64,000 nt of DNA from Psammoneis japonica (lineage: Eukaryota): assembly GCA_008632985.1 (NCBI GenBank), contig QPGO01000104.1, positions 62,001 to 126,000 of the forward strand. Reading direction: 5' to 3'. The notes under the pieces are model-generated. The model ran no database searches. It saw only the letters and a program-made list of their open reading frames with translations, and was not told where the DNA came from. Both the position numbers and the translations under genes were made by a program. This document shows, one piece after another, positions 991 through 64,000 of this stretch (position 1 is its first letter; every line of letters starts with the position of its first letter).

Positions 991-1338
991 GCGTTATGAA
1001 TCTCGTTTGCATGTTTTGCAATGTATACTTGACACTACTTCCTGTCCGCATCATTTCGATGGTCGAACGTCTTCTCATCAACTTCGCAGCTTTGCCGATG
1101 ACTGCCCTAAAAACTTTCTACGTTTTTGGCCCGGATTGCTCCCCAGGATGCGGGTGTTACCATAGTGTAGTTAATTGTTATTCTACGAACGGTCGATTTG
1201 AAATGCAGCTTTTTCCGATGAACTTCCATGAGTCGGCTCTTTAGTCGCAGTTTAAAGCGATTTCTGAACTAGATCTGCATCCAAGAGAAATCAAAAGCTC
1301 TATATCACATTTCTATATAATCGAGTTGTTCTCATTGT

Positions 1339-11798: not shown

Positions 11799-12339
11799 GG
11801 CGAGTCTGACTCCGCACTCGATCCTTTCACTTCCGGCGCCCAGAGAAATCCACTCTGAGCACTTCTACCGACCGGCATGTTATGGTGCGCCCGAACGGAT
11901 GTCTGCTGCAACAGCGCAGCTCATTGCCTTGTGTGTTGTGTCATCGACATGAGGCCTTCCTCTCGATTGAAAGAACACAACATAGGACATCAAAATCAAT
12001 GATTTCCCGTCGTCTCCTGCGATCCCATTCCCGTTTCCCTCGCTTTTGCCATGCCAATCATGACAAGATTGAGATCCACATCCATTTAATCCCGCACATC
12101 CTTTGAGAAAATTCTGAGTCGCGAATCAAAACACACATGACATGATGATAAAAACTGACGACTCGCGATCCCGTCACTCGTGCGAAACTAATCCCGTTTG
12201 CCTATGTTGTGAAACTAACCACGACTGAGACCCATCCTTTAGACATGACTGCGCAATCACTGTGATGTCGCAATGAGCGTTCAGGCGTTTGACATGTCGC
12301 CGACGAACATCGAAGCCAGCTCAATGAAGAGTTTAAACA

Positions 12340-14010
12340 GCACAGCTCACGAGATCACCGGTTGTGGCATTGCTGGCAAGTGAAAAAAGCCAGCTGCCAG
12401 CGTGTGCTTTCAAGCAAACTGCTGCTGCAAGCCGAGATGAACATCAAGCTTGCCTCCAACTGGACACATGTCAGGGGGCATTGTGTCACCTTCAGACTTT
12501 TGAAGGAGCCTGCAAAAATCACCTCCAGACTTTTGAAGGAGCCTGCAAACCTCCCAAGACCCTGCTGCCCATTGTCAGCAAAACAGGGGGCTCGCCCAAG
12601 ACTCTCTGTGGGGAGTCAGCTGATGAGCGCCTTCGTGCTTGTCAGGAGGGCAAGACCAAGATCCCAGTGGCATGAATTGTTGTTGCTCATGAGAGCCAAG
12701 AGGTGCTGATGTGGAGGTGGACAGCACTCAAAGCAATGGCCACAATGCCTTTGCAAAGATGACAGCCAGGGCCCCTCACCTTGCCACTTGGCCTGACTCC
12801 TGACGCTGTGCCGAGACCTTGGCCGCTGATGACGCCAAGGCTTGGGGTGCAATTGCAGGCATCATTGCATGAATGAGAGCATTTGTGCTGGGTTTGCATC
12901 AAGTTTTCTCAGAACAACCATGATGGCAGGGCCACCTGCTGCACTGAAACCTGCGCAACAATTTTGTGGGCCCCAAGGCAACAAAATGTGGGAATGATGA
13001 TGCCAGCGCTGCTGAGAAGTGCTCTCCACATCACTCCCCTGCATGGCAAATGCCACAACAGCTGGAGCCCTGCACCAACATCCAAGTCTTGAAGAACTCA
13101 AGGGCGGGAAATCCCTTGTTTTGGGAGGCATTTTGGAAATTTCACAGGAAAAATGGCCAAGGTGAGAAAATGTTTTTTACAAATGTGAGCGCCACTCACA
13201 GAAAAACACTCAAACAGCTTTTGAACAGAAATGCAACAATGGCTGAAATGCATTTTTGTTGAGTGCAATGGAGGTGGAGAGGTGCCCAACTTTCTTCACA
13301 TTGTTTGCACAACGTGTTGTCTTGTTTGGACATTGAGTGCAGAACACACAGGGATGTTTTTCCACAGTTGTGCCACAAACAACTGAAATGTTGGCTGGGT
13401 CTTTGATGCTTTTTGTGGGTGTGTGTCAAAAAACAAGGGAATTTCCACCATCAAGGAATGCGATTGTGCCAGCATTGATGAGTGCTCCAAGGTGCACCAC
13501 CTCCTGCTTGTGAGAGAGTCCATGTCATCAAGAGGAGAACAAGGGTGCTGAGCCCGGCTTGGCCAAGGGGCGCGCAAATCATGGCTGGCACAGTGCTTTG
13601 TGCAGCACAACTTCAAAACACATGCCTGTCTTGTTCAAGGACTTTGTGAGATGGCCCAAGCCAAGCAAAGAGAGTCAAACCCCCCTCTGCACTGTGGTTC
13701 TCAAAACTGGCACAAGTGTGAGTGTGATGATGTTGAGGGCAAGCACTGCCATCCTCACAAAAGGAGTGCTGCAAGACAACTTCTCACGATGCAGCAGAGG
13801 CTGAGAAGAAGCTCCAGCAATGTGCAACCCCACAGACAGACCAAAGACAAGTCATCCAAGGCCGCCAATGCCAAGAACGCTTGGCAGATTGAGGTTCTTG
13901 CCAACGCTGCTGCCCCACCGCTTTGTGTTTCGTGTTTCAATCACGACGCAGCTCACATTGAAAAGATCAGAGCGACAATTCAACGAGTCTTCCACAAGAA
14001 TCTTCATCAG
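12340..14010. other. TpA-depleted island B (degenerate repeat/TE-derived DNA)
   Basis: About one TA (~13178) seen in ~1.67 kb. Strong TG/CA excess. Contains a 33-bp tandem duplication at ~12487-12549. Confidence 0.85.
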
Positions 14011-14244
14011 TTCTAAAGAGTCAAAATGGCTGATGACTCCCTCCACTGCAAACAGTGTGCAGATGTAGCGGCAGAGCAGACAACAGCAGGATCGTCTTCA
14101 TCGCTCGTCTCGGCGCTTTTACCGTGAATTGCATCAAAGATGCGTGAGGCGCGCGGGCAGACACATTTTTTCTGTCGAAACGCACGCGCTATCAATCTCA
14201 ATCTCTGGAAATCGCCTCTGAACAACATCGCTTGGAACATCACC

Positions 14245-25000: not shown

Positions 25001-26478
25001 GTCGGAATGCCACTGAGTTCCGACAGCGTTTCGAGTTCCTCGACCGAGGTAATGACGGTCCCACCCTCTTCGACATCATTGTTGGGGTCGTGATCAAAGG
25101 TCAAATTGCCCAATTGCAACACAACACACAAGGCACGCATGAGGGTACGGAGAGACTCGCCTTCGAGCGTAAACACCTTGAGAGCTTGCAACGTCCGTGG
25201 CCACTGTTCGGCGTCTGTGACTCCGTCAATGGCGTGTGTGTCCGTAAAGCCGAGATATTTGAAGCTCTCCGTGGTTGTGTTTTCGAGTCCACTCCAAATT
25301 TCCTTTTTATACTCGTTCGGTGCCGCCAGCAATTGGTAAAAGACGTGATAGGTCCGTTCGTCTTGAGAATGAGACACGACGCGGCTCTTTTCCAATAGAT
25401 AGGTAGTACACTTGCTTCCCGCTAAAAGACAGTACGGAATATCTCGTCCGTGATGCTCGGCACTGGCCAGACTCTCCACGTCAAACTGAAGTTGTGTAAA
25501 TTTGCCAAACCGACTCGAATTGTCATTGCGAATCGTTTTGGCATTGCCAAAGGCTTCAAAGACGGGGTTGCTTTGCAATACTCGGCGCGTTGTTTCTTCT
25601 GCGGCTGAAACGGTTTCCTCCATGTCATCGTCCGGTGATTCCACTTGTTCTTCCTTGGGTCTTGTCAATTCTAGTGTGGCCAGCGATTGCATTAAAATTT
25701 TTACCGTTTCCGTCTTGCCTGCGCCAGATTCACCCGAAACCAAAATGGTTTGCGTGTCTCCCGACGTCGCGAGTCCCTTGTAACTCAAACACGAGGTTTC
25801 GTAAATGTGCGGATCGAAACCAAGACGATCGTACATGTTTCCAAAGGTACTAAAGTCTTGTTCCTTGTCTTCTTCTTCCAAATCCTTTTCTTCCCAAATT
25901 AAATTCTTGGCATAAACCTCTCGCTTTTCCTGAGAATACAATCCATCAATCCATAAAAACGGATTCATGGCGACCACAATATCTCCAACACGCGTATACG
26001 GCTGTAAGTTGGCATGGCGCTCCTTCAAGTTATACAGAATCGCAGCCTCGTGCAAGAACGGCAAATCCGCCATGTCGCGCTTGCCCAATAATTGTTGCGT
26101 GTTTTTATCAATGTTTTGCAGCGGCAACTCTGAATTATCATAATCGTTCAAATCCACCACGCGAGTCACTTTAGGAACGGCATGATCCGTACTACTCTTT
26201 TCTTCTTCTTCTTCCGTTGTCTCAATCAAGGCATCTTCTAGATTTTCAATCGTCGAATCACGAGACAGTACGGTCGAATCATGCCATGTCTTGGGGATTT
26301 CAATCGATACCGTTACACGTTGTGTTTGCTCAATGTCATCCGTGTTGATAATTTTGGCCGGCAACCATTCATACGCATCATCCTTGACATAGACACCCGT
26401 GACGGATGATTGATATACCGACGATAAGCGACGCGGTGGACTGCGGCGGGGTGGTGGAGTAGTGGATGACGACGACAT
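22046..26478 (-). CDS. Myosin heavy chain (motor, IQ motifs, coiled-coil tail); intron 23306-23211; frameshift ~24910
   Basis: P-loop GESGAGKT, NPVFEAFGNAKTIRNDNSSRFGK, LLDIFGFE, YIRCIKPN and IQ-like repeats. Adding one G restores AKEGCDALAKEIY. The likely start is MSSSSTTPPP at 26478. Confidence 0.92.
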
Positions 26479-26479
26479 G

Positions 26480-27955
26480 GTGTGAAGTGATGTTGTTGAA
26501 AAGCGTTGAGAGAATGCGGGCAAAAGATGTTGGCGAAAAATGACTGCATGAAAAAGCTTTCCCGCGCAAAACGAGTCCCGCGCGATCTTTTGGCTCCTGC
26601 GCTCGCGCTCTTTGATCGCGCGTGCGTTTGGGGGTGAGTGGTTGGCCAGGATGGGGCGACAGACAGAGCAGGAAGTGTCACACAAACAAGAAAGTGCACA
26701 GCTGAATAAAGTCCCAGGGAATGTGGCATGTTTGTTTGAACAGCAACGACACTGGCAACACAGTGCTGCTGTGGAAACAGAAAGATCGCTGGTGCAAAAA
26801 TGAGGGAAACTCTTTGTCCAAAGTCCTTGCAAAAAACAACTCAGCTGTTGCAAGGGTGAAGCTTGCATCAGCCTCCACATTTGGGAAACAGCCATGTCAG
26901 AAAAAGCCTCAGGCAAAGCGGTGAATGCCAACAAAAGCAAAGGGCCCTGTGCAGCGCCGCATGCGCAAAAAATGGTGGCAGACATGAACGGACACCATCT
27001 CATGTGAAGTTCGGCGGCAGTGGCTGACACAAGCTTTCCTGGTTTGTCTTTTGCCATTGCAAGTTTGAGCACCAAGCTGCCCAAGTGCCATGGCTTTGAG
27101 CTCAGTTGCTTGAGCATGCATGACTGAGCCCACTGTCACTTGCATGCATGCACCACTGTGTGGTCACACACAAACATGCCAGCACTGGGCCAGCAAGTTT
27201 TTTGAAACTTGTGCTGGAGAGTCTTTTGTTTTCAAGCCAGGTTGCAGTGGAGGGAGCCTTCAAGCTTGGTCATGGTCAAAGAGCAATTTTTTGACAAACA
27301 ATGGTGGTCAAAGCACAATCTTTCAACAAGTCATTTGAAAGTGCAAGTGTGCTTGTTGTCTCTTTCAAGTGTGACAACTTTGTCTCATCTTCCAAACAAA
27401 TGTCTTGTGCACACAACAAAGCAGTCTCTCAGCTTGCAGCAAAAGTGGTGCAAGCTTTGCAGCTCATTGTCTCATGTGCCCAATCTCCCCGCTGCAGAAG
27501 CTGTGCAAAAACAGCACCAGGTTTTGTTGATGTTGAAGGGAGCTCAAAAAGTTGAAACACAAGGGCACTGCAAAGCCAGGTGCTGACCCTGAACAGAGCT
27601 TTTTTTGTGCAAAACACTGGCAAACTCCCAACACAAGCCAACGAGGCAATGTGCTCCAAGTGGGTCAGTTGAAACCTGCAAATGACCACGGCAAACATGC
27701 AGTCGACAGCTGAGAGGGGGCAACGGCAAAGCCAGCAGTGTGCTCGCTTGCTGGGATTTTGGCAACAAGGGAGTGACGGGCACAACAGTCTGTCCAAAAA
27801 TGGCTGGGAAGTGGGTGATGATGCAGCTGCCTTGTTTGCAGCCTTTGTCAAGCAAGGAGGAGAGGGGGGGGGGGGGGGTGGCAAAACTTCACAGAGAGGA
27901 GTCAGCACAGCAGAGACACTGCCAAAGTGTGGCTGGCTTTGACAAGATTTTCATT
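26480..27955. other. TpA-depleted island C
   Basis: About one TA (~26707) in ~1.5 kb. CpG is retained at the left edge and depleted in the core. G15 run at 27864-27878. Confidence 0.85.
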
Positions 27956-28205
27956 GCAATATTTTCCACCACTTGTGCAGGATTTACACGGAACAGAGTT
28001 GAGTGACATGATGTCTCAATTCGGAGAAAAGCCAATCGAAATTCGAAGCTTGTGATTGGTGTGTAAGAGTCCGCGATGCTGATTCCCACGTCTTTCCCGC
28101 GCCATCACAAAACACGAAACAGAAACGTGACTCAAAATGGCAGGATGAGCGTTATCGCCTCACAAAACAGAAAAATAAAGAATAAAAAACACGACTACAA
28201 GCATC

Positions 28206-28875: not shown

Positions 28876-29759
28876 CAAGTAACCAAATCCAGTTCGAAAA
28901 ACTGGAATGGCATTCGGGGTGAGATTCAATGGTTTCGATGGACCAGTAAAATTCGTTTGAGCACTTTAGCTGGAGTACATCGGCATGCCATGACATTTAC
29001 AGTATGATGCAGATTGAAGATACGCATAAGCAAAATCCTTAAACCTTTTAGACGCTTCTCATTATAACAGACCGCAGAGTAGCATGAACCTTGCTTATTC
29101 ACCTTCATTATTCTTCTTAAGGCATGTTATCAACATCTCTCCAGAACCGCACTCTTGGGATCATTGCAACTCGATTGTCGAACGTAAGCGTCCTCGTCTC
29201 GTTGAAAGAACTGTCAGTCGCACCCGCAAACGGGAACACTTTTCTGAACTTTTTCCATGCAAACGTCACATATCCCAAGTTGGTAGCAGCGTTCCACAAA
29301 GTCTGCATCACCTCGTTGGGGAGGCTTCCCGTCATTCTCATCGATACTGTAACCATTTGGTAATGCGCGGAACACTTATTCCGCAATGGCGCAAGCAAAA
29401 TCGTAGACGAATATAGTCATAGATTGACGCGGGTGAGCCTCAAACATATAATCCATGAAGTCCTTTCGAAACCTCGCTTGGTCACTTGGCTGATTTTCCC
29501 GCCACTGACAAATCATACCTTATTTTACTTTATCCCCTTCTTCGCCAAGAGAATTCAGCTCCTTGAACCGGCAACAGCAATCGCCTACTTTGCACTTTTT
29601 GGCTTGTGCCATGACAGCGTAAAGCTTCCATTGCCAGTTGCGCGCATGTACCAGAAACGCATTAGCTCCAGGAATGCACATCAGCACTCGCAAGTGGTAG
29701 TCACACAACATGTGACCAAAAAACAGGGTTTGGGGCCAATTTCTGGTGCAAAAAATATG

Positions 29760-32235
29760 CAGAAAATTCACGCAGAATGTCTTGTTCATCGTGCAACAAT
29801 GGGCCACGACCTCAAGGAGTCGATTTCAGTCATGATTATCGACACTTTGTGCACTCACTTTCTGATGACTGGCATGACGATGTCCACCTTTTTGCAAAAC
29901 TCCATGTCATTGGAAAATGTTCGCTGTGGTCCCACCACAGCGAAGTGCTGATCAAACAATGGAAAATGGAGGTTTGAAGTGTTCATGCACAGAATCGTGT
30001 TGCTTGTGCAAAAGTCATCATGCAGAGCATCAACGGTTTCAGGGGAAAATGATTCCTTCTTGAGGCAGCCCAAACCCTGATTTTTATGATTTTTTCTGGC
30101 TCATCCAGTTTTGACGGGGTCTGAGTCTGGAACAAGTCCTGCTGTGCATGTTTGGCTGTGTGGCAGCAGCCCCGCTTGGCTGGGCAAAAAAGCAAAGCTC
30201 ATGACTGACCAAATGAAGCAGTGCTGCCCATGTGTGTGCCGCCATTTGAGGGTGGTTGGTTGCTGCTTTTTTGGCTTAAATTTAGCCAAACAGATTGTGT
30301 GTTTGCATGTTTTTTCCTGAGTTTCACCCCGTGCTTGACTGCAGCAAAAACATCAAGCCACAAGTCTGGCTGTGTGGCGAATGTAGCCCATCTTCAAACT
30401 CTCATGTGTTTCATGTTCCTTGCGCACCAAAGATCTCACACACATGAAAAATTTGAGGATGGCAAGCTGCATTTTTGAGAAATGTTGATGATTGTCATCC
30501 TCATTGTGCTTCAATCATGGCGCGCAATGTTCTCGTTTTTGTGTTTGATTGGCGATCGGGTGTGAACAAGAACAAAAGAACAATTTTTGAAGCCAAGAGC
30601 AGACACTGGCATCCAAATGCCATGGTGATTTTGGGGTGAACACAGGGATGACCCCCCTTGATTGGGGCCAAAAGCCATCATTGTCAATGCATCGAGTTCT
30701 CAGGAAACACTTTTGCATTTGAAAAACATGGTTGGCACCGTCAAGTTGCCATCTCTCAGTCATTGGCATGGCAATTTTCTCACCCGCAGTGCAAGAAAAA
30801 AATCAAACCACTCATGGGGGTTCAATGCATGGAGTCTGGAACAGGCAAACTGTGGTGTGGCTTGGGGGGGGGGTGCAGAAATTCACGAGCGCAGTTTGTG
30901 TCACAGAGGGTCAAATGCCAAGTTTCACAAAAAAATGAGGCTTGCAATGAACAAGATGGCAGCAACATGTGAGACTGTTGAGAATCAAGCAAACCAATGA
31001 AATGAAACATGCATTGTGCCACACAGACGTCAATGTGTCGACTGACACACCATGCCATCATCATGGATGTTGCGTCATCTTTCACATTTTTGCCCATCAT
31101 CTGGCTCTTCAGGTCATTGAACCGTGAACCGTGGCAGGGGTTTGCATGGAAGCCCAGGAAAATGCAAAGCATCTGTGAAACATGAACACATCTGTGGTTG
31201 AACATTGTCAAACAGAATTTTTGCTGTGACAAGCTTGAAAACATCTGTCAAATGATGAAGTGCAAGAGCTGTCATTTTGCTTCTTTGAAATTTTCAATTG
31301 AGGAGAGTTTTCAAAATTGCTGCAAAGTGACTGCAAAGCGACTGGCTGCACAGAAACTTTGAAGTGTCTCAAAGAATCTGAAAGTTGTCTGTGCTTTGAA
31401 GACTTTGAAGAAAATTGATTGATGACCTCTGTGTTTTAAAACAAAAGCAATCTTCAACACAGTTGTTCATTCTTTGAAGAAACTTTAAAGGCTGCAGCAT
31501 GATGCAACACCAACTCAAAAACATCTGTCCCTGAATGTCTTCATTGCAAATGGTCAAAAACAGAACCTCACCAAGTTTCAAAAATGAGCATGTCACGGCC
31601 AAGCACAAAGCACAAATGCCACAAGTTTTGCTTGCATGGCACTTGCTGCAGGGCCCCATGCATGCCGGCACTGTGGTCATTGTTGCAATGGGCAAAGGAC
31701 TTGTCAAAGGGTCTGATCACTGCAATCTTGTCTGGGACCAGCTTTTTGGTGAGAACACCATGCTTGGTGGCTGTCATTGCATTGGGGTCATGTGCACCAA
31801 GCCGGCGCTGCGTCTGACTCCAAAAAGGCATGGGGTGCCATTGCTGTGCAAAAGTGAAAATCACAAGGAGCCACCCAGCACTCGTTCACTCTGCTCAGAG
31901 TCTGAGACAGACTCAGCTTCCGCGAACAATTTTGAGTCAGGCCTCCAAGACATCTTTTGGATCTTTGACAGCCAATTCTCAAAGAATGGGGTGAGTGCAC
32001 TGCATGGTGGCACAGTGTGACATTGCGTTGCGAAGCCCCCTGCTTCAAAGTGCACTTTGAAGACACTTTGAAGACACTTCGAAGTGTCTTCAACATTTAA
32101 AATCAAATGATGTCATCTTCATTCAATGGAAATTCTGCGCAGTGACTTCGAAGTGTCTTCAAAGCTTCCAAGACTTAAGGTGGTGCAAGACAAAAATTGT
32201 CGGGAATTTTTTCTGGTGTGATTTCTGCACTTTTC
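29760..32235. other. TpA-depleted island D
   Basis: About 8 TA in ~2.5 kb, mostly in TTAA/TTA context. TG/CA excess. Confidence 0.85.
32043..32093. repeat. Two adjacent perfect palindromes (20 bp at 32043-32062; 26 bp at 32068-32093) built from cttygaag units
   Basis: cttcaaagtgcactttgaag and ttgaagacacttcgaagtgtcttcaa. Related units at ~32145-32165 and ~31357-31410. Confidence 0.85.
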
Positions 32236-41331: not shown

Positions 41332-41919
41332 CCAAAACGAGGGTCACTGCCACCGCGCGTGCAGTGACCCCCCAAAACGAGGGTCACTGCAGCTGCGTTA
41401 AATTCTACGTGTTTGTACCAGGAAAATGTACCTCCAACCTATCCGGCAGGCGTGAGTAATATTTTACTACAAATTGCAAGACAATTGCGCGATTCACGTG
41501 CCCGAAGGTGGAATATCGTTGCCCGAAGCAACATTCTCCCTTCGCGCAGATGTCAATTCTACGTATGATGTGGTATCAAAATTTTCATTTTGGTCGTCTA
41601 AATCGTCCCAGTCATTTCATCAAATGACCTTGTGGTACTCTCCTACGTGATCTACGCAAATCGGAGCTTCGGGCTGGCTGGTACATTTTCTACAGGCTCT
41701 ACGTGCGCGAAGCTCGAATTTCAACAATCACCCTTCGGGCACGTGAATCGCGCAATTGTCTTGCAATTCGTAGTATGTACGAGAAAGAGTTCGTTGGGGC
41801 AGGCGAACAACATCACTCTACGATGCGACTGGTACAAAATCTACGTAAATGCACAGACACGCTCTGGAGCATGTCTGTGCAAATTCGAGCTCGTAAATAA
41901 TAAGCAGGGATATCGCATA

Positions 41920-44900
41920 CAACATCATGACCACGATCGGGCACCGAACGCACAAACGACAAGCGATGGAGTGTGGGCATCTCCAGCAGTTTTGCATGAG
42001 TCACAAGTGGTGAGGTGCAATTCCTCCACAGGAACATTGCCAGAGCAACAAAGGGTGTGTGCCATCTCTTTGTCCAAAGTGGGCTGAAAGAAGTGTTGTC
42101 TCAGGCTGTTTTCCGCATGTGGCTCCAATTTTCTCACATCCTCGCTGTCAAAGCCAGCAAGTCATGAACAACAATCGCGCTTTGCACCTGCTTGAGTGTG
42201 GCAAGATTTTGCAAATGGGCAGCACTGCTGTGGTGGTTGTGCTGTTCCCACCTGTGGTGCACTGAGGAGAAGGTCATGTGTCTCTCAACACCAGAGTGCC
42301 AGCACAACAAGATGCTCCTCATGCAGGAAAAGAAGGGGTGGATGATGCAAACAATGTGGGCTCTCTGTGGTTCAAAGGTTGCGTGAAAATGCATCTTCCA
42401 TGATGAAGCTGCACAGCTTGAGAGGCAACTCAGCAACACCCCACCTGCCAGGCATTTTGAAAATTTGTCATTTGTCATTTCCGCTCAACAGCAGCTTGTG
42501 CAGCAGCAAGAGCTCTTTTTTTTTCTGGGCGATGCACCGCACAACGTGGAGGAAAACAAATGCAGCTTGCCCCCCATGCTTGCATCAACAAAAGCAGTGG
42601 CAGTGCTGAGCCCTGTTTGATGGAAGTCAATTTTGTCCATTTGTCAACAGGGAGATTGTGGCAAGTGTTTGGAGTCTCTCAACAAGGAGGTGGTGTTCAA
42701 GATCTGTGCCAGAGACCACAAGCCAAAGGCTCTTGTTTCCTGAAAAGAGCTGTGGGGGAGGATTCATCAAAACACATCACATTGTCCTGTGCATTGCAAG
42801 CACAAGGCACTCTGCTGCTTGTGAGGGGCTTCTCAATGATGCTTTCAACATGATCATCCACAGTTTCTGTCATTTTGTTCTGGAGAGCATTGGCAAACAC
42901 AAGCAAAACAACCAGGTGAACATTTGAACGACATTTTGTTGTCTCTTTGTTTTGGGTGCAAGGGACTGCAATTTTCAAACAGAAGAGCTTGGTGTCAGTT
43001 CATTGCTCCACAGATTGCACCAGAGCACAGCTGGGCCAAGTCACCCAGCTTGACAGAGCAAGAATCACATGCAGCCACAACTCCAGCAGATGTGTTCCAG
43101 CCCCCCAGGCAGGACCTCACAGTGCTGCTGAGGTGCAACATTTGAGCACAGGGGATTGACTTGGTGCAGAAACTGTGCAGATTTCTGTGCAAACAATTGC
43201 CCAATTTTGGTTGAATTGGGGGAATGAATTGCAAACTCTCAAAACTGCATCTCAACAAAAAATGGCTCCATGCCACACTTCAAAGCTTGCATGATGGCCC
43301 AAAGCATTGCAAGTCTTCATTTTTAGCTGACAACACTGCACTGAAGTTTGAGAAGAGAGGCAGAGGAGAAATCATCGTCACACACAAAAACAGAAGCAAC
43401 CACAGAGCAGCCATGCAGCGCGCCTGCTCTGGCCTCAAAGCTGCCACAATTGACAAGACATTTTGTGCCTCTCATGCCACAAAAGGTGACAAGGTTGCAA
43501 ACAAAATGTTTGATGCATTTCAAGCCAAAAATCAGGACAAGCCATTTAACAAATTGGAACCCAAGGGCACAACACATTTTAGCAAGCACTTGTCAGATGA
43601 GCCCATCATCCATCAGCATGGCAATCCTGACAAGGAGCTGATGGGGGTTGATGCCAAGCAGCAAATTCTTGGCACAGAAGCAAAAAAATGAAGTTTCCCA
43701 AGCACCCTGACTGGGAAGATGAGGGCAAGTGGTGCACAAGCCTCTCCGCAGCAGCGACATGGCAAAGGCTGCTGGCAAAGCCAGCCTGCTAGCATGGAGC
43801 ACATGGACAAAAAAACTTTCCCTCTGGCCCAATGTGTTTTTTCAGAACATGTTTGAGCAAAGAGCAAAGCACCATTCTTGTGTCAGATGGAAGTGCAATG
43901 TTGAGAATTGAAAGTGAGGCATTTGCATGTGACACAGAGATGTTGTTTCTTGCTCTCTGGCTCTGCAGCACAGTTGTCTTTTGTGATGAACAACGGCACT
44001 CTTTAGCAGCATTGCCAGATTTTAATGAGTGCCATGGCTCCTTTTAATGATGCAACCAATGGCTTTGTGATTTGTTCTACAAGAATTTGGAAGCTGCGTG
44101 GTGTGAGTCCAAGACAGTGGATTTGTGTGGACTTCTTTTTCCACCAAACAAAACATCTTGTCTCTTTCATTTGTGCTGTGCTTTTGCAGACAATGTGGAA
44201 AAGGAACTCCACAAACACACATTTCCATGGAGAATCTGGTGTGAAAGCTCAAGGCAAGTTGTTTTCATTGAACAGGACATCTTCAATGCTTTTGCACAAG
44301 TTGAGCAGTGAGATGACATTTTTTCTCAGGAAAATTGCCAGAGCAACACAACCAATGTACACCATCTTTATCCAGAGTGAAATTGTTGTTCATCAAGAAT
44401 CTTTTGTCTGGATGTTGTGGCAGCCTTTCTTAAAAGAAATGTTGTCTCAGGCTCTTCCTGCTCCATGACATTTTGGACACAGCTCCAACTTTCTTGTTGC
44501 TGTCAAAACTGGTGATTCACAAACAACAGGTGCCATGGGCTGCCCTCCACTTGAATGCAGTGAGCTTTTGTAAATGGATTTTGTGGTGCTGCTGCTCCTG
44601 TGGTGCATTGAGGATGAGGTTGACACAACATGTCGATGCAACATGAACTTCCACCACATGCAGTGAAAAGGAAGTGAGTGCCACAAACAGCGTGAATGTC
44701 AAGATTGAAAGGGAATGACAAGGCATCCTTGATGAAGATGCTGGGGTTAAGAAGTGACTTTTAAACACCCCACCTGTGAGGCATTTTGAATTTGTCAATG
44801 ACAGCTTGCTCAATCACAAGAGCCCCTTTTGCTTCTTTTTTTCCCAGATGAAAAACCCAGCAGATGCGGACAAGAAAAAATGCAGCTCATTCCTGCTTGC

Positions 44901-44990
44901 ATCAACAAGAACAATGGAAGCACTGAGCCCTGTCAAACAGCAGTTTGTTTCAGTTGTTGTTCAACAGGATTGTCATGAGGGTGTTTGGAA
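41920..44990. other. TpA-depleted island E containing two diverged copies of a ~1-kb unit (~42000-42953 and ~44300-45350)
   Basis: No TA seen from ~41915 to ~43320. Collinear shared blocks include attgccagagcaaca, tgttgtctcaggct, aacaccccacctg and tgcttgcatcaacaa. Confidence 0.85.
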
Positions 44991-45348
44991 TCTCGAGGAG
45001 GTGTTCAGGATCTGCCGGAGACTACAAGCTCAAGGTTGTTGCCTGAAAGAGGAGCCACGTGGAGGACGCAGCGAAGTGTGCCATCTTACAGCACCAATCA
45101 CGTGCATTACAAGCATTCGAATATTTTTGAAAATCAGGACATGGTGGCGGGTTCAATCGAATTTACTTATTCAGGCGACTTGTGAAGGGCTTCTCAACAT
45201 TCCACATGAACTATTGGGCGTTATTTTACTCTCTACTAGAGAGAGGGCGTTACTTGCAAACACAAGAAGTTCTTGAACAAGGAATCTCGGATGCAGCTCT
45301 CGACAAAACTAGGTAAACATTTGAGTAATATCTCGCTATCTCTTTGTT

Positions 45349-46398: not shown

Positions 46399-46749
46399 AC
46401 TGCACGGGGCACTTATTTTCCGTTTGTGGTTTGCAGCATTTCGGTCATGATCGATCTCTTATCAGCACAACTGTTGATGGGCTGAATAAACAGCGCAGCA
46501 GCCATCAGCCGCAGCGGGACTGTAATGTGGAGATGGTCGATTTCATTCGTGCGTTCAAGTCGTGTTTAAAATTTGAAAAATTTCGGTTCAATTTCGACGT
46601 TTGCGTAAAAAACATACGAAATTGACCAATCCAAACAATCATCACGTCTCACAGTGATGGAGGTCAGTGAGAGAACGGAGGTCACTGCGCGCATTGTATT
46701 TAGATCTTCCATCTTATTGTCCAAGGCAGTCTTGCACTCCTTAATCTGT

Positions 46750-49700
46750 GCAATGGCCATGTCTGGTTGTGTCCAGTGTGCATTCAAGAGGGCTTCATGG
46801 GTTTGAGCTCTTTGACTTCCCAATGGTTTTGTCCCCTTGAGAGAACAAGACCCGCAGGCTTGCACCACACATGACTGAAAGCAACAACGAACATCTTTGA
46901 CATCCTTTTTTGGGCAACTGCACTGAGCCACAGTGCAAGCTGAGCAGCAAACTCCAGCCCATTTTGTCGGCTCCAGAAAAGGTTTTTGACATGCAGGTTT
47001 TCATTCACAAGTGCCTCACTTGCCAGCTGAGCCAAATGAGTGCCTTTTGGCACCGTTTCCTGACAATCTTCATTTGGCATGGGGGGCAGCATCAACTGAC
47101 ACACCACCAGTGTCCTTCCAATCTTGATTCGCTGTTTTGGAGGATGCATGCAGAGTCTTGCCACTTGAATCTTCATTGAAGTGCTTGCCGGCAGATGGCA
47201 TGGCTGCTTTTAAAGATGTGCCGGCGAGCAATGGCAGCCGCAATGTTTTGTCAACAAGTTTGGTCTTTGTTCTGCAGCTGCACGTCGCCAAGTGGCAAAC
47301 ATTTGAATCTTGTAAAATTTGGAAAGGCCAACATGTGCACATGCATTTTCAAATTCTCTTTAGACTGCGGAATTTTCTGAGGGTTTTGTCAACTCGTCTC
47401 CACTCCGACCTCGTTTTGGAGCAATGGCAAAGAGAGGAGTTCAAGCCACATCACATGGTCAGGAATGGCATGCCCACACATTTTGTTTCTGTTTGTGACA
47501 ATGCAAACCTGCTGAGTCTTTTGGGGAGTTGTTTTCACCGGCATTCCGAAGGTCACCGCATCTCCCATGATTTGGGTTTGGCACTTTCATGCTGTGAGTT
47601 CCTTTGCTCGTCTGTTGTGGGTTGCTCCCCTCGGGCTCACAATCTGCTTTGTAAAAAGATTGTGAAGAGGCATTTCCCCTGGCACACCTGTTGAGCAAAA
47701 GCAACTGGCCTCTTTTTCCAATGCCAGCCCAGCTCACAACTTGATCATTGTGAGTCATGCATCTGCTGGTGAGCTTGACCACAGCAAGACTCACATTTGC
47801 CCAGTGCCTTTTCTGTCCAGGCATTGCACTGGACTTTCAGTGGCTCCAACTGTCTCTTTCCCAGCTGGCAAGTTCTAATGCAGACCACCATGGCCAAAAC
47901 TGGCAATTGTTGAAAAACACTCAGCACACATTCAAGGCAATTTGAGCTTGTCACTCACTGTCAATGTGCAGCAATGGCTTGTTCAATGACAAGAGCCCTT
48001 TTCAGTCTTTTTGTTGCATGAGGAACAAGTGATTGTTGATCTGAAAAGAGCAAGTGCAGCTCTTGTCTGCAGGGTTGTGACAAAGATGCTTGGAGTTTCA
48101 AAAAGACATTTGGAATCTGCTGAATGTCAACAAGCTCAAGAGGCAGTTGTGCCTGAAACAGGATCTGTGCCAAGGACGTGGCAATGCATGCCACCTTGTC
48201 TCATGCTTTGCAAGGTGCTCCACACCATTTGTGAAAATTGGCACATGTGCGGTGGCAGGTGAAATCAATTTGAGGCACTTTGGGCAACCACTTGGTTTTA
48301 CAACAAAAGGCTTCTCGATGTCATCCTCAGAGAGTGCTGACAAAGACAAAAGCAGTTGCTGAACAAGCAAGGGCTCTTGGTCACCACTCAACAAAACCAG
48401 GCAAAACAACTGCACAACACATTGTCATCTCTTTGTTTTGTGAAAGCAGGGGCCTGTGTGGTTTTCAAGTGGGCTGCCTCTTGTGCAGGAGAGTGTGAGC
48501 TGAGTCAACCAGCTGCCACAGTGTTTCTGCCCATTGCTCCACCCCCTTGTGTGACTTTGGTTTGTTGGTCAGCATGAGACCACAAACCCAACAAGAAAAC
48601 AAGTCTTGGCAATCACACAAAGCAGCATTGTCCAGCCTTGTCCATGCTGCAGCAGCAACTCATCAGAGCTTCTTCCAGACAACAGCAAAAATGATGCAGT
48701 CTTTTTGATTGCTTGCACACAGTGGGTGTGATCAACTTGGAGAAGTTGCTGGCACATTTGAGAGCAAGAACGAGGTGGCAGGTTCAAAACTTCCTGGTCA
48801 TTCTCCAGGTTGCTGGTTGTTTGACTTTCTAAAGCTGCAATTTTGTGGAGTGAACAAGTTGCCCCACACATCTCAATGAAAAACTGTCTTTCGCTCAAGT
48901 TCAGCATGTCAAAAAAGCTGGTCCAAGCAAAGAGGCCCTGTTTTCCTTAGTGTTCCAAAGATCTCTTCTGCAATGACAGTGAGAACAAATCATGGCACAG
49001 CAGATGTGGTCCATTTGATTGGCTCTGCCATTTTTGGGATCTAAGATGACAATCTGAAAAATGTTCTTGTGGGTCCATTGAGGAGTGGGAGCAATTTGTG
49101 GCTGCAAATGTTTGAGTGGCAGGGGTTGGGGACAACAGTGCCCCTGGCCCCACAAAACCACCATGAAAACAATCTACAGAACTTTGCAACTCACTTGTCT
49201 TGAAAACCTCAATCATTTGCACAAGTTCACTGGCCCGGTTTTGTGATGCAAAATGCACAATTTCCAGCCCAATCCATTTGTCGCATCATCAGGAAAAATC
49301 TCTCAAATCTGCCTCACTGTGAGAAGAGTCTCCTGAAGAGCTGGCTGGCACCAAACCTGGGTCACCTTGTTGTGCCACCTCATTGTGAGCACTCATGAAC
49401 TCACGGAGTGCAGCCCTCCTGTCACCTTCAACCATGTCGTCAGCACGTGTCAAGCCAATGCCCCGATGGCCTCAAAATCCCTTTGGCACCTGTTGAACTT
49501 CTTTGACATTGGTGTCCCCAGATGAGCAACTCAAGCACTCTGCAAGGGTGCCTTGTTGCTCTGAATGACGAAGTTCCTGAAGGAAACGCCCCCCACACCC
49601 ATGTGAACTCCGCTGTTTCGACAAACATTCTTTGGCCCAACCAGGGTTTCAATGTGCTCTTTGAGAACACTTTCATCTGCTGGGGGCAATTTTCTCAGTG

Positions 49701-50100
49701 TTGCAAGTTCCCCAAATTGACCCAAGTGAGCATCGCTCTTGGCAGCACCAGGAAACAAAATTTGCAGGGCAAACACTCATCGCTGCCTGGGGTTGAGTCA
49801 ATGAACTGTCGCAATGTTGTGTTGTGACCCTGAGATTGATTCTGGACCCAATGTGTCTGCAGGAACAGAAAGAAACAATGAAGATCCTCCCTTGTTGCCA
49901 CTTTTCTTCTCTGTGTCGACAACACAACAAAACAGTGACATTGTTGAGCGACAAGCAAATGGCGGGGACTGCGGAAAGCATGGTCCTCACAAAGACTTGC
50001 TTTCTTCTGCTCAGGGCGTGCCTTCCGTTCTCGGCTACCTTTCTCGGCTTTCTGATCCTCAAGCACCGAATCGACCCCCTTGAAATGCACCTGACGTTCG
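46750..50100. other. TpA-depleted island F
   Basis: About 12 TA in ~3.35 kb by eye. TG/CA excess. Bracketed by a ~50-bp diverged direct repeat. Confidence 0.85.
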
Positions 50101-50259
50101 TTCAACAACGTAAGGGGTTCAACGTGTCAAGCGAAATGATCGAAAAAAATTCGCACAGCACAATAATTTTGACGTTTTTGCGCAAAAAATCAGACGAAAA
50201 TTGACCAAACCCAAAACACACGTACATCAGAGGAGCACACAACACAACACAGATGCAAC

Positions 50260-56361: not shown

Positions 56362-56579
56362 GGTGTTTTTTTTGGGTGTCGTTTTTTGTGTGTCGCAAGG
56401 ATTTGTGACGAACGAACGAGAGCGTCAGAATGATACGCTGAGCGATTCCGTTTTTGTACATGAGAATAATAGGAAGAAGGGAATCATTCATTTCTCGAAC
56501 GATGCGAACCCTGCGGCGCGTGGAATGATGGCGCCATCACCGTGTATGTCGTTGGACCGATGGACGGACTTACTTCTTG

Positions 56580-58480
56580 TTGCCAGTGCGTGGTGTGCAC
56601 TGTGTGAACTGCACAAAGCAACAAATGTGAAGCTGTGACTTGTTTGAAGCACGCTTGCATGCAAATCCTCAGTGGGAAGTGACTCTCCTCTCTTTCTTCT
56701 CACATCATTGTGTGTGCTGCGTCCGTGTGTGTCTTTTGGAGCTCTCCTGCACCTCTGCTTGCTGCGCGCCTCTTTGCCTGAGATGACAAAACAAGGAGCG
56801 GTGGGCCCGACTTGCAGCAGCACTCCATGGCATTGACTCTGTCAGTTTGGGGCTTGTTTTCAACTTGCTAGAGTGTTTCACCTGATGAGCTGCCTGAGTG
56901 TGTCAACATGTCACAGCAAGAGAACAAACTCTCAACAGCGCACTGCAAAAGACGCTCCCCCAGCACTGTGGTCACACGCACCAAAAGCAACAAGGGCAGC
57001 CAGTTTCTCCACTCAGCTTTGCAAAAAGCCACCTCCCTGGGCAGCATCTTGTTCTAAGCACCTGAGTCAGCATCAATCAGAACATGATGTCATCATGACG
57101 GAAATGTCACCCACCCAATGAAAGCGACATGGTTGACATCACCTGTGACGTCATTGTGCAAAACCATCAAAACAAAGAACATCAAAAGACCTCTCCTGTT
57201 GGGGTCATTCTTCTCCATTGCTGTCAGTCTCCTGTTGCCATGTTCACTGTGCTTGAAGAAGAGTGCAAATGAAACAGAGTGAAGTGCAAAAAGCAAAAAT
57301 GTGAGATTGGATTTTGCACAATCACTTTGGGTTTGTCCAAATGAGTTCTCAATGGCCTAAATTTTCTGCACTGCTCCCACATGAGAGAGGCCTTTCAGAG
57401 AATGCAATCGTGACATCAGATTGTCCAGGTGCAATTGCTGTTGACACATGAAATGTCAGCATTGAACTCTGCATGATCGATCTAACTGACCTTCGCATGA
57501 ACTCACAATCAATGCACGATTGAGCACACAACAATGTGCAAGCACACACATGCACATTGTGCAACATGTGCAAGTTGTGTGGTGCACCATTTGGCCATTT
57601 TGCAAACACCTGAACCCCCCACGCACATGCGTGTAACAACAGCAACATCATCACATCATGACAGCCGCAAAATTGTGCCAAATCATGAAATGAAAATGGA
57701 GTTTTCTCTGCACCTCAAGAGCTGCCATGTGCATTTCTCCTGCGGCCTTTTGACATCAAGCTGACAAAACTCACCCCAGCTTGTGTCATTCTTGATCTCT
57801 TTTTGTTTTCCTTTGAGATTGTCAAGGGTGGGGCTGCCTGAAGCAGGCCACAGAGCGCCAACTGCCGCCAAACCGCCATGACACAATGCACACAATGCCA
57901 AGCACCGTTCTTTTCCAGTCAGCTGCCAGACTTGGGCCACCTGAAGTGCTGCCATGACACAAAGCACCAATGGCTGACTGACCCACTTTTTGCTGCCAAA
58001 CTTCCACACAGAGACTTGCTAGAAGCAGGTGGTAGATGAAGTTGTCAAGAAGGTTTTCTGACATCACTGAGAAAAAACTTGGCATCCTTGTTTTGTTGTC
58101 CACCACTTTTGTGTGAAGCAGCAGTGATCAGCTTTGTGCAAGGCAGCAGCGCTCGCTTTCTGCTCGCCACTGCAGCAGAGCCTTCAGCATGGCTTGTTGC
58201 TTTCACTGATGCCTCCACACATTTAATTCATTTCTCTGCCCAAACTTGCACCCCCTTGTCACTCAAGAAACTGAGTTTGATGTTCACTCACCCACTTTTG
58301 TCGGCGTGTCTCTCCAACCATTGTGCACACACATGATGGTGCTTAGAACTGCAGCATTCAGCAAGCTTGACAGATTTGTTGGGAAGGCTGATCCAGAGCG
58401 TAGTTCTAATGGCCATGGATTTTTGAAAAGCCTGTGAGCATCATCGTGGAGCGACCGCTTGCGCAGCATTTCTGGTGTGC
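56580..58480. other. TpA-depleted island G
   Basis: About 10 TA in ~1.9 kb, nearly all TAA/TAG. Abrupt switch to TA-rich DNA at ~58490. Confidence 0.85.
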
Positions 58481-61053: not shown

Positions 61054-61129
61054 AGAATAAGAGTCTAGACAAAAGGATCCCTGGCATGCGCTCATTCGGC
61101 CACTTCTAATTGACAATAAGTAATTTCCT

Positions 61130-64000
61130 CTTTCTCATTCTCTTTCGACACTCGACTGCCCGGACGGGCTTTGCACCGCCAGTTCCTCCTTCTCTCTCAC
61201 TTTTTTGCATGTGGCACATGGCTTAACACCAACCCCTGCAAACTAACCTGAACTTGCGTTGTCTTGGTGGTTCTAGACATGTTGTGATCTGTCAAATCTG
61301 GTTACTTCTCTGTTGGTCTCTTTTAGTTTTGCTTCATCTAGATTGCCCTTCCAAATGAGTTGTCCACAACATCAGTCAACATGACATTTTTTCTTACATT
61401 GACTTCACTTGTGGGTTCATTTTGTGCAAGCTGTGATCCACAATTTGCCTCTGGTCCTCAAGATGCTTCCCCAGCAAAAATGATCTGTAGATCCAGATGA
61501 CAAATGTTGGAAAACTGGGTGGGCCAATGAGGAACAAGTCACTGGATGAACAAACACCCACCCATTGCCAATTTGAGGCAGCAGATGAAGTTTCATTTCA
61601 ATGTTTCAACCGCCCAACTGCAGACACTCTGGGGGGTCCATGTCACCTGCAGCAGGAAAGATCCCTGCTTGGTTTGTGCAGGGTGCACAACGACACCATG
61701 CTGCTGTCTTTGTTCTGATTGCAGCCACAGATTGTGGCTCTTTCCACACACACACACAAAAACATCAACTCTCTGTTTTGTGTCTGTCACAACAGCTCTG
61801 CTTGGGCTTCTCTGCTGCCTCTCAACTTTCTTGCAGCTGCCAAAGAAAGTTGCAAAGGGTCAGTGCAGCTGGCGGGCAAGTTGTGCCAGCATGGCCCATT
61901 GAGAACATTTGCAGCCCCTGTTGGAAAACAAATTTTTGCACTGACACACTGCACCAGCAGAAGATTGTCAAAAAGCAGCTTTCTTGTCCATTTTTCATGC
62001 GCATTTTTTTCTTGGTCAGGTTGAGGGGGGAGCTTTTGTTGCTGCTTGCTGCACCCTTTGCTTGTTGTCTTTGCCTCTTCTCAAGCTTCTGAGTGCAATG
62101 ACCAATCAACAGAGCAAAACAAGATGCTGGTGGAACAAAAGAGCACCAAAGGGCCACAACATAAAGTGCAAAACTGTTGTCAAGCAGGCAGCCAGCCACA
62201 CAGCCAGTGCTGCATCATCAGCACATGTGCAGCATGCTCCAGTGCTGGGTGGAACCTTGTGCTGCTGAGCTGCAATGCTGGCAGCATTTTGTCTTGTGCA
62301 GGGCCATGTTTTCTGCTGCAATCAGGGGGGGGGGGACATTTGTTGTGGCACGCTCTGCAGAGAAACAACGCCCTTTTTTTGATGTTTTTTTCATGCAGAG
62401 GTGTGGGAGAGCTGGTGATCATGACCTTTCTGCAACCTTCTTTCAATGCCCAAAAAAATGCTTTGTGTGGCAAAAAAGTTGAGAAGTGAGGAGGGCTTGC
62501 CTTCGTGGAAAGAGGGGTGCGGGCCATTTGATCAACGTGCTCCCCAGCAAAATGCGTGCCCAGAGCTGGGGCAAAAAACAAGCAACCTCATCAGAGCGCG
62601 AAATGTGGTGATCCTGGCCACCCTTCTTGTGGGCAATTTTTAATGCCATTGCATGTAAAAATGCACACCCATCCTTTTGAGAGAGTTGTGTAGAACGTGA
62701 TTTTTTATTGCACATCACAGTGTGCCATTTTTCACCATGGGACCCCTCCTTCACCCATGGGACCCCTCCCTTGACTGTCAGAATTCCGTCACTTTTCACC
62801 TTTTGAAAGCGATGTTCACAACGTTTTAGTCAACAACAAATCAATGCCAATCATTGCGTTGCATTGATTTAAGAACCTCACATTGCACACACTGGCTCCA
62901 TTGCGTGCACTGGCTGGAAAACAAAAGGTTGTGTCACAAACCAATGATTCCTAAAACACTTCATCAAACCTCACAACTGTTGGCATTGAAACCCACTGCA
63001 TTGCTCATCCTCTTTCCATTGTCACACTGACAAAAGCCTCCGCTGCCTTTTCACACCGCAGCTTGCTCATCCTCTGCATCTGCACTCGTGTCGCTGCCCG
63101 CATCACTTTCCTCCTCCTCTTCCTCGCTGTCCTCGTCTCCTCTGTTCTTGTCCATTGCCTCTTCCTCCTTCTCCTCATCGTCACTTGAAAGCTCTGTCGT
63201 TGCCTGTGTTCTTGCCTCCTCCACCGGCTTTTTCTTTCTTTTCAATCCCTTGCCTCTTTCGTCAATCTTCCTTTTCTTGCCTTTGCTGTGCCATGTGTTG
63301 AACTGCATGCCCTCCTCACTGAACCTGTCTTTCTTTACTTCTGCCATCAGCTCGTTGAATCGCTTGATCCCTGCATCCTTCCAGGAGTCTCGTTGCCTCG
63401 ACGGGTCCGTGTGCTTGGGTGTTGGTTCCAACTCTTCCTCATCTTCATTGTCCGAACCTCCCCCTGCTGCAACAGTCTTGTCATGACGTGCCTTGTGCTC
63501 CCAACTCTTCCAGCAGTTCTCCAATGTCAACAGCACTGGAGCCTCGTCGCTCGCTGCAGCCAGACCGGTTGCCTTCGTCTCACCCGACTCCATCTTCCTT
63601 CTCCATGTGGTGGTGCTCTTTGTGAATTTCAGGATGTTTTCGCAGAACCAAGCACATGCTTCCTTGTTCTTGCGCTTGTCCTCCACAATCGTTGTCACTG
63701 TCTCCTCCCCCCAAGTTGCCAGGAATGGCTCTTCCTCTTCCGTGCGATCGTTCTTCTTCCTCTTCTTGCTCTTCTTCCCACATCCACCCTTTGCTGCCGG
63801 CTCCTTCTGACTGCGCATCTCCTCTGCTTCATTCTCTGTCAACACGACTTCAGCAAATGAAGGTGCAGCTGTGTTGAGCACAACTAAACTCAACATGCCG
63901 TGCACCACAAAACACTTGCCAGCCGTTGCATTGTTCTTGATCGCCTGAGTGACCGTGCTCCTTTTCGCGTTAATTGCATGCATGATGCACTTCTTTGCCC
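61130..64000. other. TpA-depleted island H (TE-derived, continues beyond window)
   Basis: Very few TA. CpG is depleted in ~61300-62500 but retained in 63050-64000. Confidence 0.85.
63051..63983 (-). pseudogene. Mutated transposon-associated-type ORF (SDEA..LL.LEN.W...PK.T...W...GI.RFNEL...V..DR family), Tyr-free
   Basis: 310 aa with no Tyr. I recall this motif from repetitive diatom/oomycete hypothetical proteins but have not verified it. Positions expected to be Tyr or Leu read TGC, CAC, TGT or CCA. Confidence 0.6.

Follow-up and report, generated by a model that had tools for sequence, protein, structure and literature searches.

We describe here a stretch of 64,000 nt of a contig from the diatom Psammoneis japonica (NCBI GenBank assembly GCA_008632985.1, contig QPGO01000104.1, positions 62,001 to 126,000 of the forward strand), in which ordinary genes lie between islands that have lost nearly all their TA dinucleotides, and an open reading frame (ORF) in the last of these islands, whose predicted protein contains no tyrosine. 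We refer to the full 64-kb stretch as the window; it is one window of the genome, and this is the scope of all the composition results given below. The ORF is on the minus strand at 63051-63983, which corresponds to 310 residues counted from its ATG, and its frame stays open up to the window end at 63998, for 315 codons and with no frameshifts. Its stop codon is a TGA (63051-63053). The ORF and the codons that matter most for the argument are as follows.

63051..63998, minus strand: ORF of an uncharacterised repeat-borne family, identified by homolog comparison; ATG at 63983, open to the window end, zero Tyr.
63654..63656, minus strand: Cys110, codon TGT of the EA-C-AW motif; the column is Tyr in 34/38 homologs, which suggests TAT to TGT.
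63642..63644, minus strand: Cys114, codon TGC; the column is Tyr in 15/38 homologs (the three closest among them) and Cys in 7.
63537..63539, minus strand: Pro149, codon CCA of the SDEA-P-VLL motif; homologs have L/F/M/Y/H/W in what is a confidently predicted helix of the family model, which suggests CTA to CCA.
63513..63515, minus strand: Cys157, codon TGC of the EN-C-W motif (LEN-x-W in the family); the column is Tyr in 14/40 homologs.
63411..63413, minus strand: His191, codon CAC of the PK-H-T motif (PK-Y-T in the family); the column is Tyr in 35/40 homologs, which suggests TAC to CAC.
63288..63290, minus strand: His232, codon CAC; the column is Tyr in 19/40 and Phe in 14/40 homologs.

A preliminary description of this DNA, made from its letters, had placed the ORF at this position, with zero Tyr and with the codons TGC, CAC, TGT, and CCA at its four motifs, and each of these statements is correct. 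The 310-residue protein has 0 Tyr, 5 Cys, and 6 His; with a family median of 2.7% Tyr, the probability of finding no Tyr in 310 residues is 2e-4. The 933 nt of the ORF contain 3 TA, with an observed-to-expected (o/e) ratio of 0.07, and 39 CG (o/e 0.68), with TG and CA at o/e of 1.57 and 1.59, respectively. At the o/e of the window background (0.57), ~25 TA would be expected, and the Poisson probability of finding 3 or fewer is 5e-8. Since the coding frame has its own TGA only and the five remaining frames of the same stretch carry 3-13 stops, this frame is the real one. The N-terminal stretch of the ORF (AKKCIMHAINAKRSTVTQAIKN) aligns ~90-140 residues inside longer homologs, and also inside the upstream frame of a related locus on metagenome contig L001 (see below). 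Because its first residues match an internal segment of longer homologs, the window edge truncates the gene on its 5' side, and, judging by these alignments, the ATG at 63983 is probably internal and not the gene start.

To which family does this ORF belong? A family profile search among 1.84 billion representative proteins found 837 relatives at E ≤ 1e-3, of which 115 at E ≤ 1e-10. Most of them are 170-250 residues long, and they form an unnamed family of ~200 residues with the consensus KR..Y.WF..N.L..VVG...WK / AT.SDEA..LL.LEN.W..W / KYT / GWS.EGI.RFNEL..EV..DR. One relative (P0001) matches the ORF with an E value of 1.9e-37 and 43% identity over 208 columns, and the similarity of the helical core is significant. 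The near-invariant residues of the family (R, E, N, W, T, W, G, V, and R) are retained in the ORF. The consensus given in the preliminary description (ENYW, PKYT, xxYxW, and SDEALxLL) agrees with these real homologs.

We aligned the ORF with 40 homologs and defined as Tyr-rich any column with Tyr in at least 25% of them. As had been proposed from the motifs, Tyr is replaced by Cys or His: all 5 Tyr-rich columns are C, C, C, H, and H in the ORF. The two best columns are Tyr in 89% and 88% of the homologs, and all 40 aligned homologs have at least two Tyr. From the column frequencies, the chance that a random family member has Cys or His at all five Tyr-rich columns is ~2e-6. The possibility raised at the outset, that homologs also have Cys or His at these columns, applies only rarely, with Cys in 1/38 homologs at the best Tyr column and His in 2/40 at the second. 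Changes at other TA-type codons had been anticipated too and were found, with CCA for Leu and with Val replaced by Ala. Pro149 is unique to the ORF and falls in the middle of a predicted, conserved helix. We also compared the ORF and each homolog with the consensus of the remaining sequences and counted replacements by direction, taking Y>C, Y>H, I>T, I>M, V>A, L>P, and L>S as forward changes. For the ORF this gave 7 forward changes and 1 reverse among 47 mismatches in 104 consensus columns, compared to means of 1.12 forward (maximum 4) and 0.70 reverse for the 40 homologs, and the ORF ranks 1st of the 41 sequences in forward replacements. Both strands have been changed, since three Tyr→Cys correspond to A→G on the sense strand, and two Tyr→His together with Leu→Pro correspond to T→C. 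The replacement of such conserved residues suggests that the protein is inactivated, or at least crippled.

The loss of TA is not restricted to the ORF. The window contains nine islands of 1.0-3.5 kb each, 18,230 bp in total or ~28% of its length, within which o/e ranges from 0.04 to 0.09 for TA, from 0.15 to 0.62 for CG, and from 1.5 to 1.9 for TG and CA. They are listed here without strand, starting from the window end, together with their status in a DNA run, X1, where this is available.

62828..64000: island with the ORF; TA 0.08, CG 0.62, TG 1.72, CA 1.54; strongly repeated in run X1.
61340..62691: adjacent, more CpG-decayed island; TA 0.06, CG 0.15; unrepeated at ≥90% likeness in run X1.
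56471..58401: TA/CG-depleted island; TA 0.09, CG 0.38; repeated in run X1, depth 347-936.
46702..50164: TA/CG-depleted island; TA 0.06, CG 0.28; single-copy in run X1.
41902..45108: TA/CG-depleted island; TA 0.08, CG 0.19; 1406-bp TA-free run and an internal direct repeat pair.
29699..32235: TA/CG-depleted island; TA 0.07, CG 0.41; runs into an N gap (32236-32453).
26426..28064: TA/CG-depleted island; TA 0.04, CG 0.44; directly upstream of the myosin gene.
12217..14120: TA/CG-depleted island; TA 0.04, CG 0.37.
1..1024: TA/CG-depleted island at the window start; TA 0.07, CG 0.32.

When both strands are pooled, TA o/e is 0.06 in the islands versus 0.57 in the rest of the window, CG o/e is 0.32 versus 1.02, and TG and CA alike are at 1.73 versus 1.18. 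The GC fraction is 0.479 versus 0.466, and the summed frequency of TA, CG, TG, and CA is 0.239 versus 0.242. The pyrimidine–purine (YR) sum is thus preserved, with the lost TA and CG reappearing as TG and CA, as would be predicted for conversion by transitions. The islands are sharply bounded, to within 50-100 bp, with the same edges for TA as for CG; the longest TA-free run is the 1406-bp one listed above. The genes between the islands are ordinary and have normal TA, and include a myosin, a P-type ATPase, an adenylate kinase, and a SOUL protein, among others. These findings show that the signature is specific for TpA, that it is restricted to the islands, that it affects both strands, and that conserved residues have been replaced by it. 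GC-biased gene conversion was considered and rejected, because island GC is close to the background and TA alone was lost among the AT-only dinucleotides (AT o/e 0.76, AA o/e 1.31). A 4-mer regression of the island TG contexts on the background TA and CG contexts was discarded as well, since it gave an R2 of 0.54 and an unphysical negative CG coefficient.

Decay of CpG is a process distinct from this loss of TA. Decay of CpG in cytosine-methylated transposable elements is known in diatoms and many other eukaryotes. Like the process described here, it feeds the TpG/CpA pool, and it explains the low CG (o/e 0.15-0.44) of the eight islands other than that of the ORF. As a sole cause it was rejected, because it cannot remove TA and the ORF combines a TA o/e of 0.07 with a CG o/e of 0.68. 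The ORF island, which has lost its TA but retained most CG, thus calls for another process, separate from CpG decay. In this island TA loss is saturated and most CG are kept, whereas the others have lost both, which makes the two processes separable. This fits the earlier suggestion that TA loss does not result from CpG decay and may come before it, with CG o/e of 0.62-0.68 for the ORF island versus 0.15-0.44 elsewhere, and TA below 0.1 in all. The TpA loss is probably the faster of the two.

One island offers a view of how the changes may have arisen. Two direct repeats in island 41902-45108, at ~42350-42800 and 44680-45110, are 63% identical over 406 columns and are possibly the terminal repeats of one element. 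Among the 81 adjacent double mismatches between them, TG↔CA is the commonest type with 13, compared to a mean of 3.0 and a maximum of 10 in 2000 column shuffles. Such a footprint would be expected where a single ancestral YR site had turned into TG in one copy and into CA in the other. The pair is the only similarity detected when the islands were compared with one another by blastn, which otherwise found them unalike. One run X1 contig skips 545 bp of this island, at 44348-44894, which may be a structural difference between run X1 and the assembly. Elsewhere, the 77 TA that survive in the islands are distributed non-randomly, with 19 in TTAA and 17 in CTAA/TTAG, compared to 84 and 134, respectively, in a background sample, and with ATAG at 0/209, ATAC at 2/277, and GTAC at 1/147. 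These numbers are small, and they hint that there may be a wider context preference in which a purine before the T or a pyrimidine after the A makes a site more susceptible.

The contigs of run X1, built from exact 31-letter words, were used to examine repeat status. Over 62677-64000, summed contig depth is 3210 and 2924, versus 50-68 at the flanking single-copy genes, which is ~45-60 times higher, bearing in mind that summed depth is not copy number. On the 20 kb compared, 636 contig pieces could be placed with 90-99+% likeness. This combination of high depth and many diverged pieces indicates that the ORF stretch is a diverged multi-copy repeat. A second repeat at 56674-58007, in island 56471-58401, shows a summed depth of 347-936 against the same flanks. 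Two other contigs reproduce islands almost letter by letter: one of 8923 bp spans 44001-50805 with 6 differences, and one of 1678 bp covers 60969-62647 with 0 differences. No variant place of run X1 is found in the ORF among 40 of 234 listed. Some contigs skip 224 bp within the ORF (63581-63806) and some are without 3 bp at 63801, so that other copies of the repeat have internal deletions. The description of the ORF as transposon-type therefore stands in so far as the stretch is strongly repeated, but neither a transposase nor another known domain could be found in it.

The host is a diatom, in line with the SOUL protein of the window, whose named relatives are all diatoms, with 50-62% identity (Trieres, Eucampia, Cylindrotheca, Corethron, Seminavis, Attheya, Mayamaea, and a Bacillariaceae metagenome-assembled genome). 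A precedent for the signature comes from another alga, the chlorarachniophyte Bigelowiella natans, for which a preprint (Mettrop et al. 2026, bioRxiv 10.64898/2026.01.13.699255) reports the following. In mutation-accumulation lines, two integrated viral regions mutate at ~1000x the rate of the rest of the genome, or ~6e-7 per site per generation, and 230 of their 231 mutations are A→G or T→C, all of these at TpA. These mutations, seen in Illumina data, arise in DNA that is already integrated and single-copy. Genome-wide, there are 124 clusters that are poor in TpA and rich in CpA and TpG, and these are enriched for DDE and reverse-transcriptase domains; the callable part of the genome is 85 Mb, given as 90% of the total. 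As the enzyme, the authors put forward an ADAT2-like adenine deaminase that would act on DNA. When the thresholds of that preprint were applied to our window, 16 of the 64 1-kb windows passed, with three clusters of at least three windows each:

42001-45000; 47001-50000; 61001-64000, no strand: clusters of 1-kb windows passing the B. natans preprint thresholds.

Taken together, these findings make it likely, in our judgment, that the ORF is a 5'-cut gene copy on a repeated element of the diatom nuclear genome, which was hit after insertion by host-driven T:A→C:G hypermutation at TpA. In such a scenario, an element would insert into the nuclear genome and a host process would then convert T:A to C:G at TpA, turning TA into TG or CA depending on the strand that is hit. 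In codons, TAY would become TGY or CAY (Tyr to Cys or His), CTA would become CCA (Leu to Pro), and GTA would become GCA (Val to Ala), and the stops TAA and TAG would become TGA, CAA, TGG, or CAG. The sole stop obtainable is TGA from TAA, which is a stop already, and the process therefore creates no new one. Since TA loss destroys TAA and TAG and makes no stop, it explains without selection why the frame is left open and why island frames are long; what remains would be a long open frame coding for a crippled protein. The same process would have swept all nine islands, and in most of them CpG→TpG/CpA decay would have acted as well, as expected from cytosine methylation of diatom repeats. That TpA loss might outpace CpG decay fits the very high rate in B. 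natans. By analogy with that precedent, and from the footprint in the repeat pair, we infer that the process acts on integrated DNA. The precedent likewise suggests adenine deamination at TpA as the chemistry, and the process may be a defence that targets foreign or silenced DNA.

Other explanations can be given for the same signature. Some protists carry modified thymines with a preference for TpA, and the T of TpA in silenced DNA might be modified by a TET/JBP-type enzyme (to 5-hydroxymethyluracil or a base-J-like product) and then mispaired or repaired to C. Since TA is self-complementary, T→C on one strand is indistinguishable in sequence from A→G on the other. We nevertheless consider this thymine chemistry unlikely, the sole published proposal for the signature being ADAT2-like adenine deamination, itself unproven (Mettrop et al. 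2026). Slightly less probable again is that the changes were made before integration, by A-to-I editing of retroelement transcripts (ADAR-like or ADAT/TAD-like, with a 5'-U preference) that was then fixed by reverse transcription. Sharp island edges would be expected if the mutations pre-dated insertion, and, according to the Discussion of the same preprint, ADARs do favour U before the edited A, with no ADAR known outside animals. However, editing of a sense RNA copy would give A→G on one strand, whereas here three Tyr→Cys are found alongside two Tyr→His and a Leu→Pro, and TG is about equal to CA. Moreover, the B. natans mutations were found in integrated, single-copy DNA (Mettrop et al. 2026), and the TG↔CA differences within the repeat pair of one island suggest change after duplication.

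Two further possibilities would do away with a mutational process in the host altogether, and both appear very improbable to us. If TA avoidance were an intrinsic, selected composition of the element lineage, be it a virus or a transposon, each island would be a discrete unit with its own composition, as is seen, and it might be relevant that another family member (P0111) is also Tyr-free. Selection on the element, however, would not favour replacing the best-conserved Tyr (88-89% of homologs) or placing a Pro in a conserved helix, equally extreme values recur in islands that are unrelated, the balance of YR dinucleotides speaks for conversion, and the family member on L001 has normal TA. Even less credible is a misreading by a long-read platform of modified A or T at TpA and of 5-methylcytosine at CpG. 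Modified bases do give systematic consensus errors with long reads, and this is a scaffolded assembly with an N gap. Against this, run X1 contigs at a depth of 50-68 reproduce islands with 6 and 0 differences (although run X1 is perhaps not independent of the assembly), the 315 codons are free of frameshifts, and the B. natans signature rests on Illumina data (Mettrop et al. 2026).

How does the proposed hypermutation at TpA in the diatom compare with known systems? As in B. natans, the change is T:A→C:G at TpA only, giving TpG or CpA according to strand, and there too the TpA-poor, CpA- and TpG-rich regions are clustered, in mobile or foreign sequence. Unlike there, the host is a stramenopile, not a rhizarian, and the mutations, which were measured directly in B. 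natans, are here read indirectly from composition and homologs. The density is far higher, with 3 clusters in 64 kb versus 124 in a genome with a callable 85 Mb. The islands are also CpG-depleted, a feature that the preprint does not mention, and the target shown here is not nucleocytoplasmic large DNA virus or virophage DNA but a gene that belongs to an unnamed family and is carried on a repeat. As for targets in general, the ORF island and 56674-58007 are strongly repeated, host genes are TA-normal, and the other islands are without recognisable domains, two of them being single-copy at ≥90% likeness.

Repeat-induced point mutation (RIP) of fungi acts in the direction C:G→T:A, for the most part turning CpA into TpA, so that TA becomes more frequent, GC falls, and stop codons appear, and it needs duplicated sequence. 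The process in the diatom would resemble RIP of ascomycete fungi in being a dinucleotide-specific transition hypermutation that disables mobile DNA permanently, on both strands and in sharp islands. Its direction is the opposite, since TA is destroyed, GC is unchanged (0.479 versus 0.466), and no stops can arise, and unlike RIP it is found in two islands that are single-copy at ≥90% likeness. RIP itself was rejected as an explanation, given an island TA o/e of 0.06 versus 0.57 outside and a GC that is not lowered. There is also a resemblance to APOBEC3 (C→U on complementary DNA) and ADAR (A→I on double-stranded RNA), in that host editing cripples invaders and ADAR favours U before the edited A. 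These enzymes, however, edit RNA or single-stranded complementary DNA with a one-strand bias, whereas here both strands of an integrated element are changed.

A class of mechanism of this kind has thus been known since 2026, in one rhizarian alga. In the available sections of the B. natans preprint, diatoms, CpG, tyrosine, and stop codons are not mentioned, and our full-text searches of one library of papers did not find the TpA→TpG/CpA signature reported in diatoms. As far as these searches show, the novel points are that the signature occurs in a diatom, that it is so dense here, that it can be separated from CpG decay, and that it leaves a footprint in the protein. Diatom repeats are cytosine-methylated. 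In the consulted text of a paper on the mutation rate of Phaeodactylum (PMC6604790), a passage on the methylation of diatom repeats cites Huff and Zilberman 2014 and Veluchamy 2014, and a search of that text by terms did not find the signature.

Several points weigh against the interpretation we favour. All the evidence comes from one 64-kb window of the genome. Each amino acid change is deduced from homologs that are 25-43% identical to the ORF rather than from a direct parent. The signature is read from sequence, and the process could be extinct in this lineage. The CG o/e of 0.68 in the ORF may be a native value rather than a sign of little decay so far. That the remaining islands are inserted foreign DNA is suggested by their sharp edges and their composition; no mobile-element domain was found in them, and they are mutually unalike. 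Two islands, 46702-50164 and 61340-62691, are single-copy at ≥90% likeness in run X1. Run X1 may also be the window's own assembly data, in which case its agreement with the window is not independent. Finally, the normal TA of the family member on L001 means that the TA-loss signature is not a property of the family.

Several searches addressed the identity of the family. A Pfam scan of the ORF found no family at E ≤ 1, and a scan of 18 homologs found none for 17 of them. The 18th (P0042, 1267 residues) matches only unrelated families, none of them a transposase, and we took these matches as spurious low-complexity hits, 0 stretches passing alone. No transposase, integrase, or reverse-transcriptase Pfam model was detected in the ORF, in the 18 homologs scanned, or in the ORFs of L001, and among 49 island ORFs the only Pfam match was one sub-threshold domain of unknown function. 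A word-indexed protein search returned a single homolog with the ORF as query and likewise one with the 41-sequence profile, its candidate list having probably been saturated by the acidic and basic low-complexity tails. An exact look-up of nine proteins of the window found none of them in the protein collection. The family profile has 0 matches in the PDB by sequence. AlphaFold predicts a helical core at residues 45-190 of the family model (pLDDT, the predicted local distance difference test, of 80.3), for which Foldseek found 0 matches in the PDB at E ≤ 0.001 and VIA-align a best Z of 3.9, which is noise level. A query of the ESM Atlas with one family member (P0002) gave no usable match, and the ORF core had none among viral contigs.

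Metagenome contigs were scanned too, with no match for the alignment of the ORF family (A1) and one locus for another family member (P0006):

L001, 7639-8253, strand not stated: family member on a metagenome contig, found by contig scan.

The TA o/e of L001 is 0.4-0.8, which is normal. Beside the family member, at 1-6617, there are three large frames of 692, 376, and 1077 residues. Seven L001 ORFs have no Pfam match at E ≤ 0.001, and the three largest yield only noise at E ≤ 10 (E 0.31-0.93); the 1077-residue frame has no match in the PDB, and no terminal repeats were found at L001. This stretch may be the intact form of an undescribed element. Among 150 family representatives, P0111 (192 residues) is the only one besides the ORF with zero Tyr. 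It has 9 Cys and 4 His; the main Tyr column is occupied by Cys, and several of the conserved Trp are changed to other residues. Possibly this is a further hypermutated or decayed copy, from a different sample.

More broadly, we would propose, tentatively and with somewhat more doubt than conviction, that diatoms have an active genome defence that converts TpA to TpG/CpA in inserted DNA, either homologous to the B. natans system (and so ancient in stramenopiles, alveolates, and rhizarians, or wider) or convergent with it. This defence would be faster than and independent of CpG decay, would hit multi-copy and single-copy insertions alike, and would have shaped about a quarter of the stretch. 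If this were true, TpA hypermutation would not be a one-species curiosity but a candidate for a widespread eukaryotic genome defence, one that mirrors fungal RIP. The enzyme could then be sought by comparative screening, through genes common to carriers and absent from non-carriers, and comparing diatoms with B. natans would narrow that search. Should the signature also be found in model diatoms with genetic tools, the enzyme would be experimentally reachable. The ORF, in which TA loss is complete and most CpG remains, suggests an order for the two decay processes. There is also a consequence for annotation, because relics without TAA and TAG keep long frames that can be called as genes and could inflate diatom gene predictions; such hypermutated relics can be flagged simply, by a predicted protein that is Tyr-free and rich in Cys and His.

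A few other features of the window are worth recording. The stop-to-stop frame of the myosin gene (24793-27135, minus strand) runs upstream into island 26426-28064 for ~236 spurious codons, because this island is almost without TAA or TAG. Between the two terminal islands, 62641-62952 has several TA and a tandem ccatgggacccctcc repeat, and may be the junction or the end of the ORF-bearing element. At 17141-18505 (plus strand), an adenylate kinase domain is fused to a C-terminal CaMKII-association/SnoaL-like domain, which is an unusual architecture.

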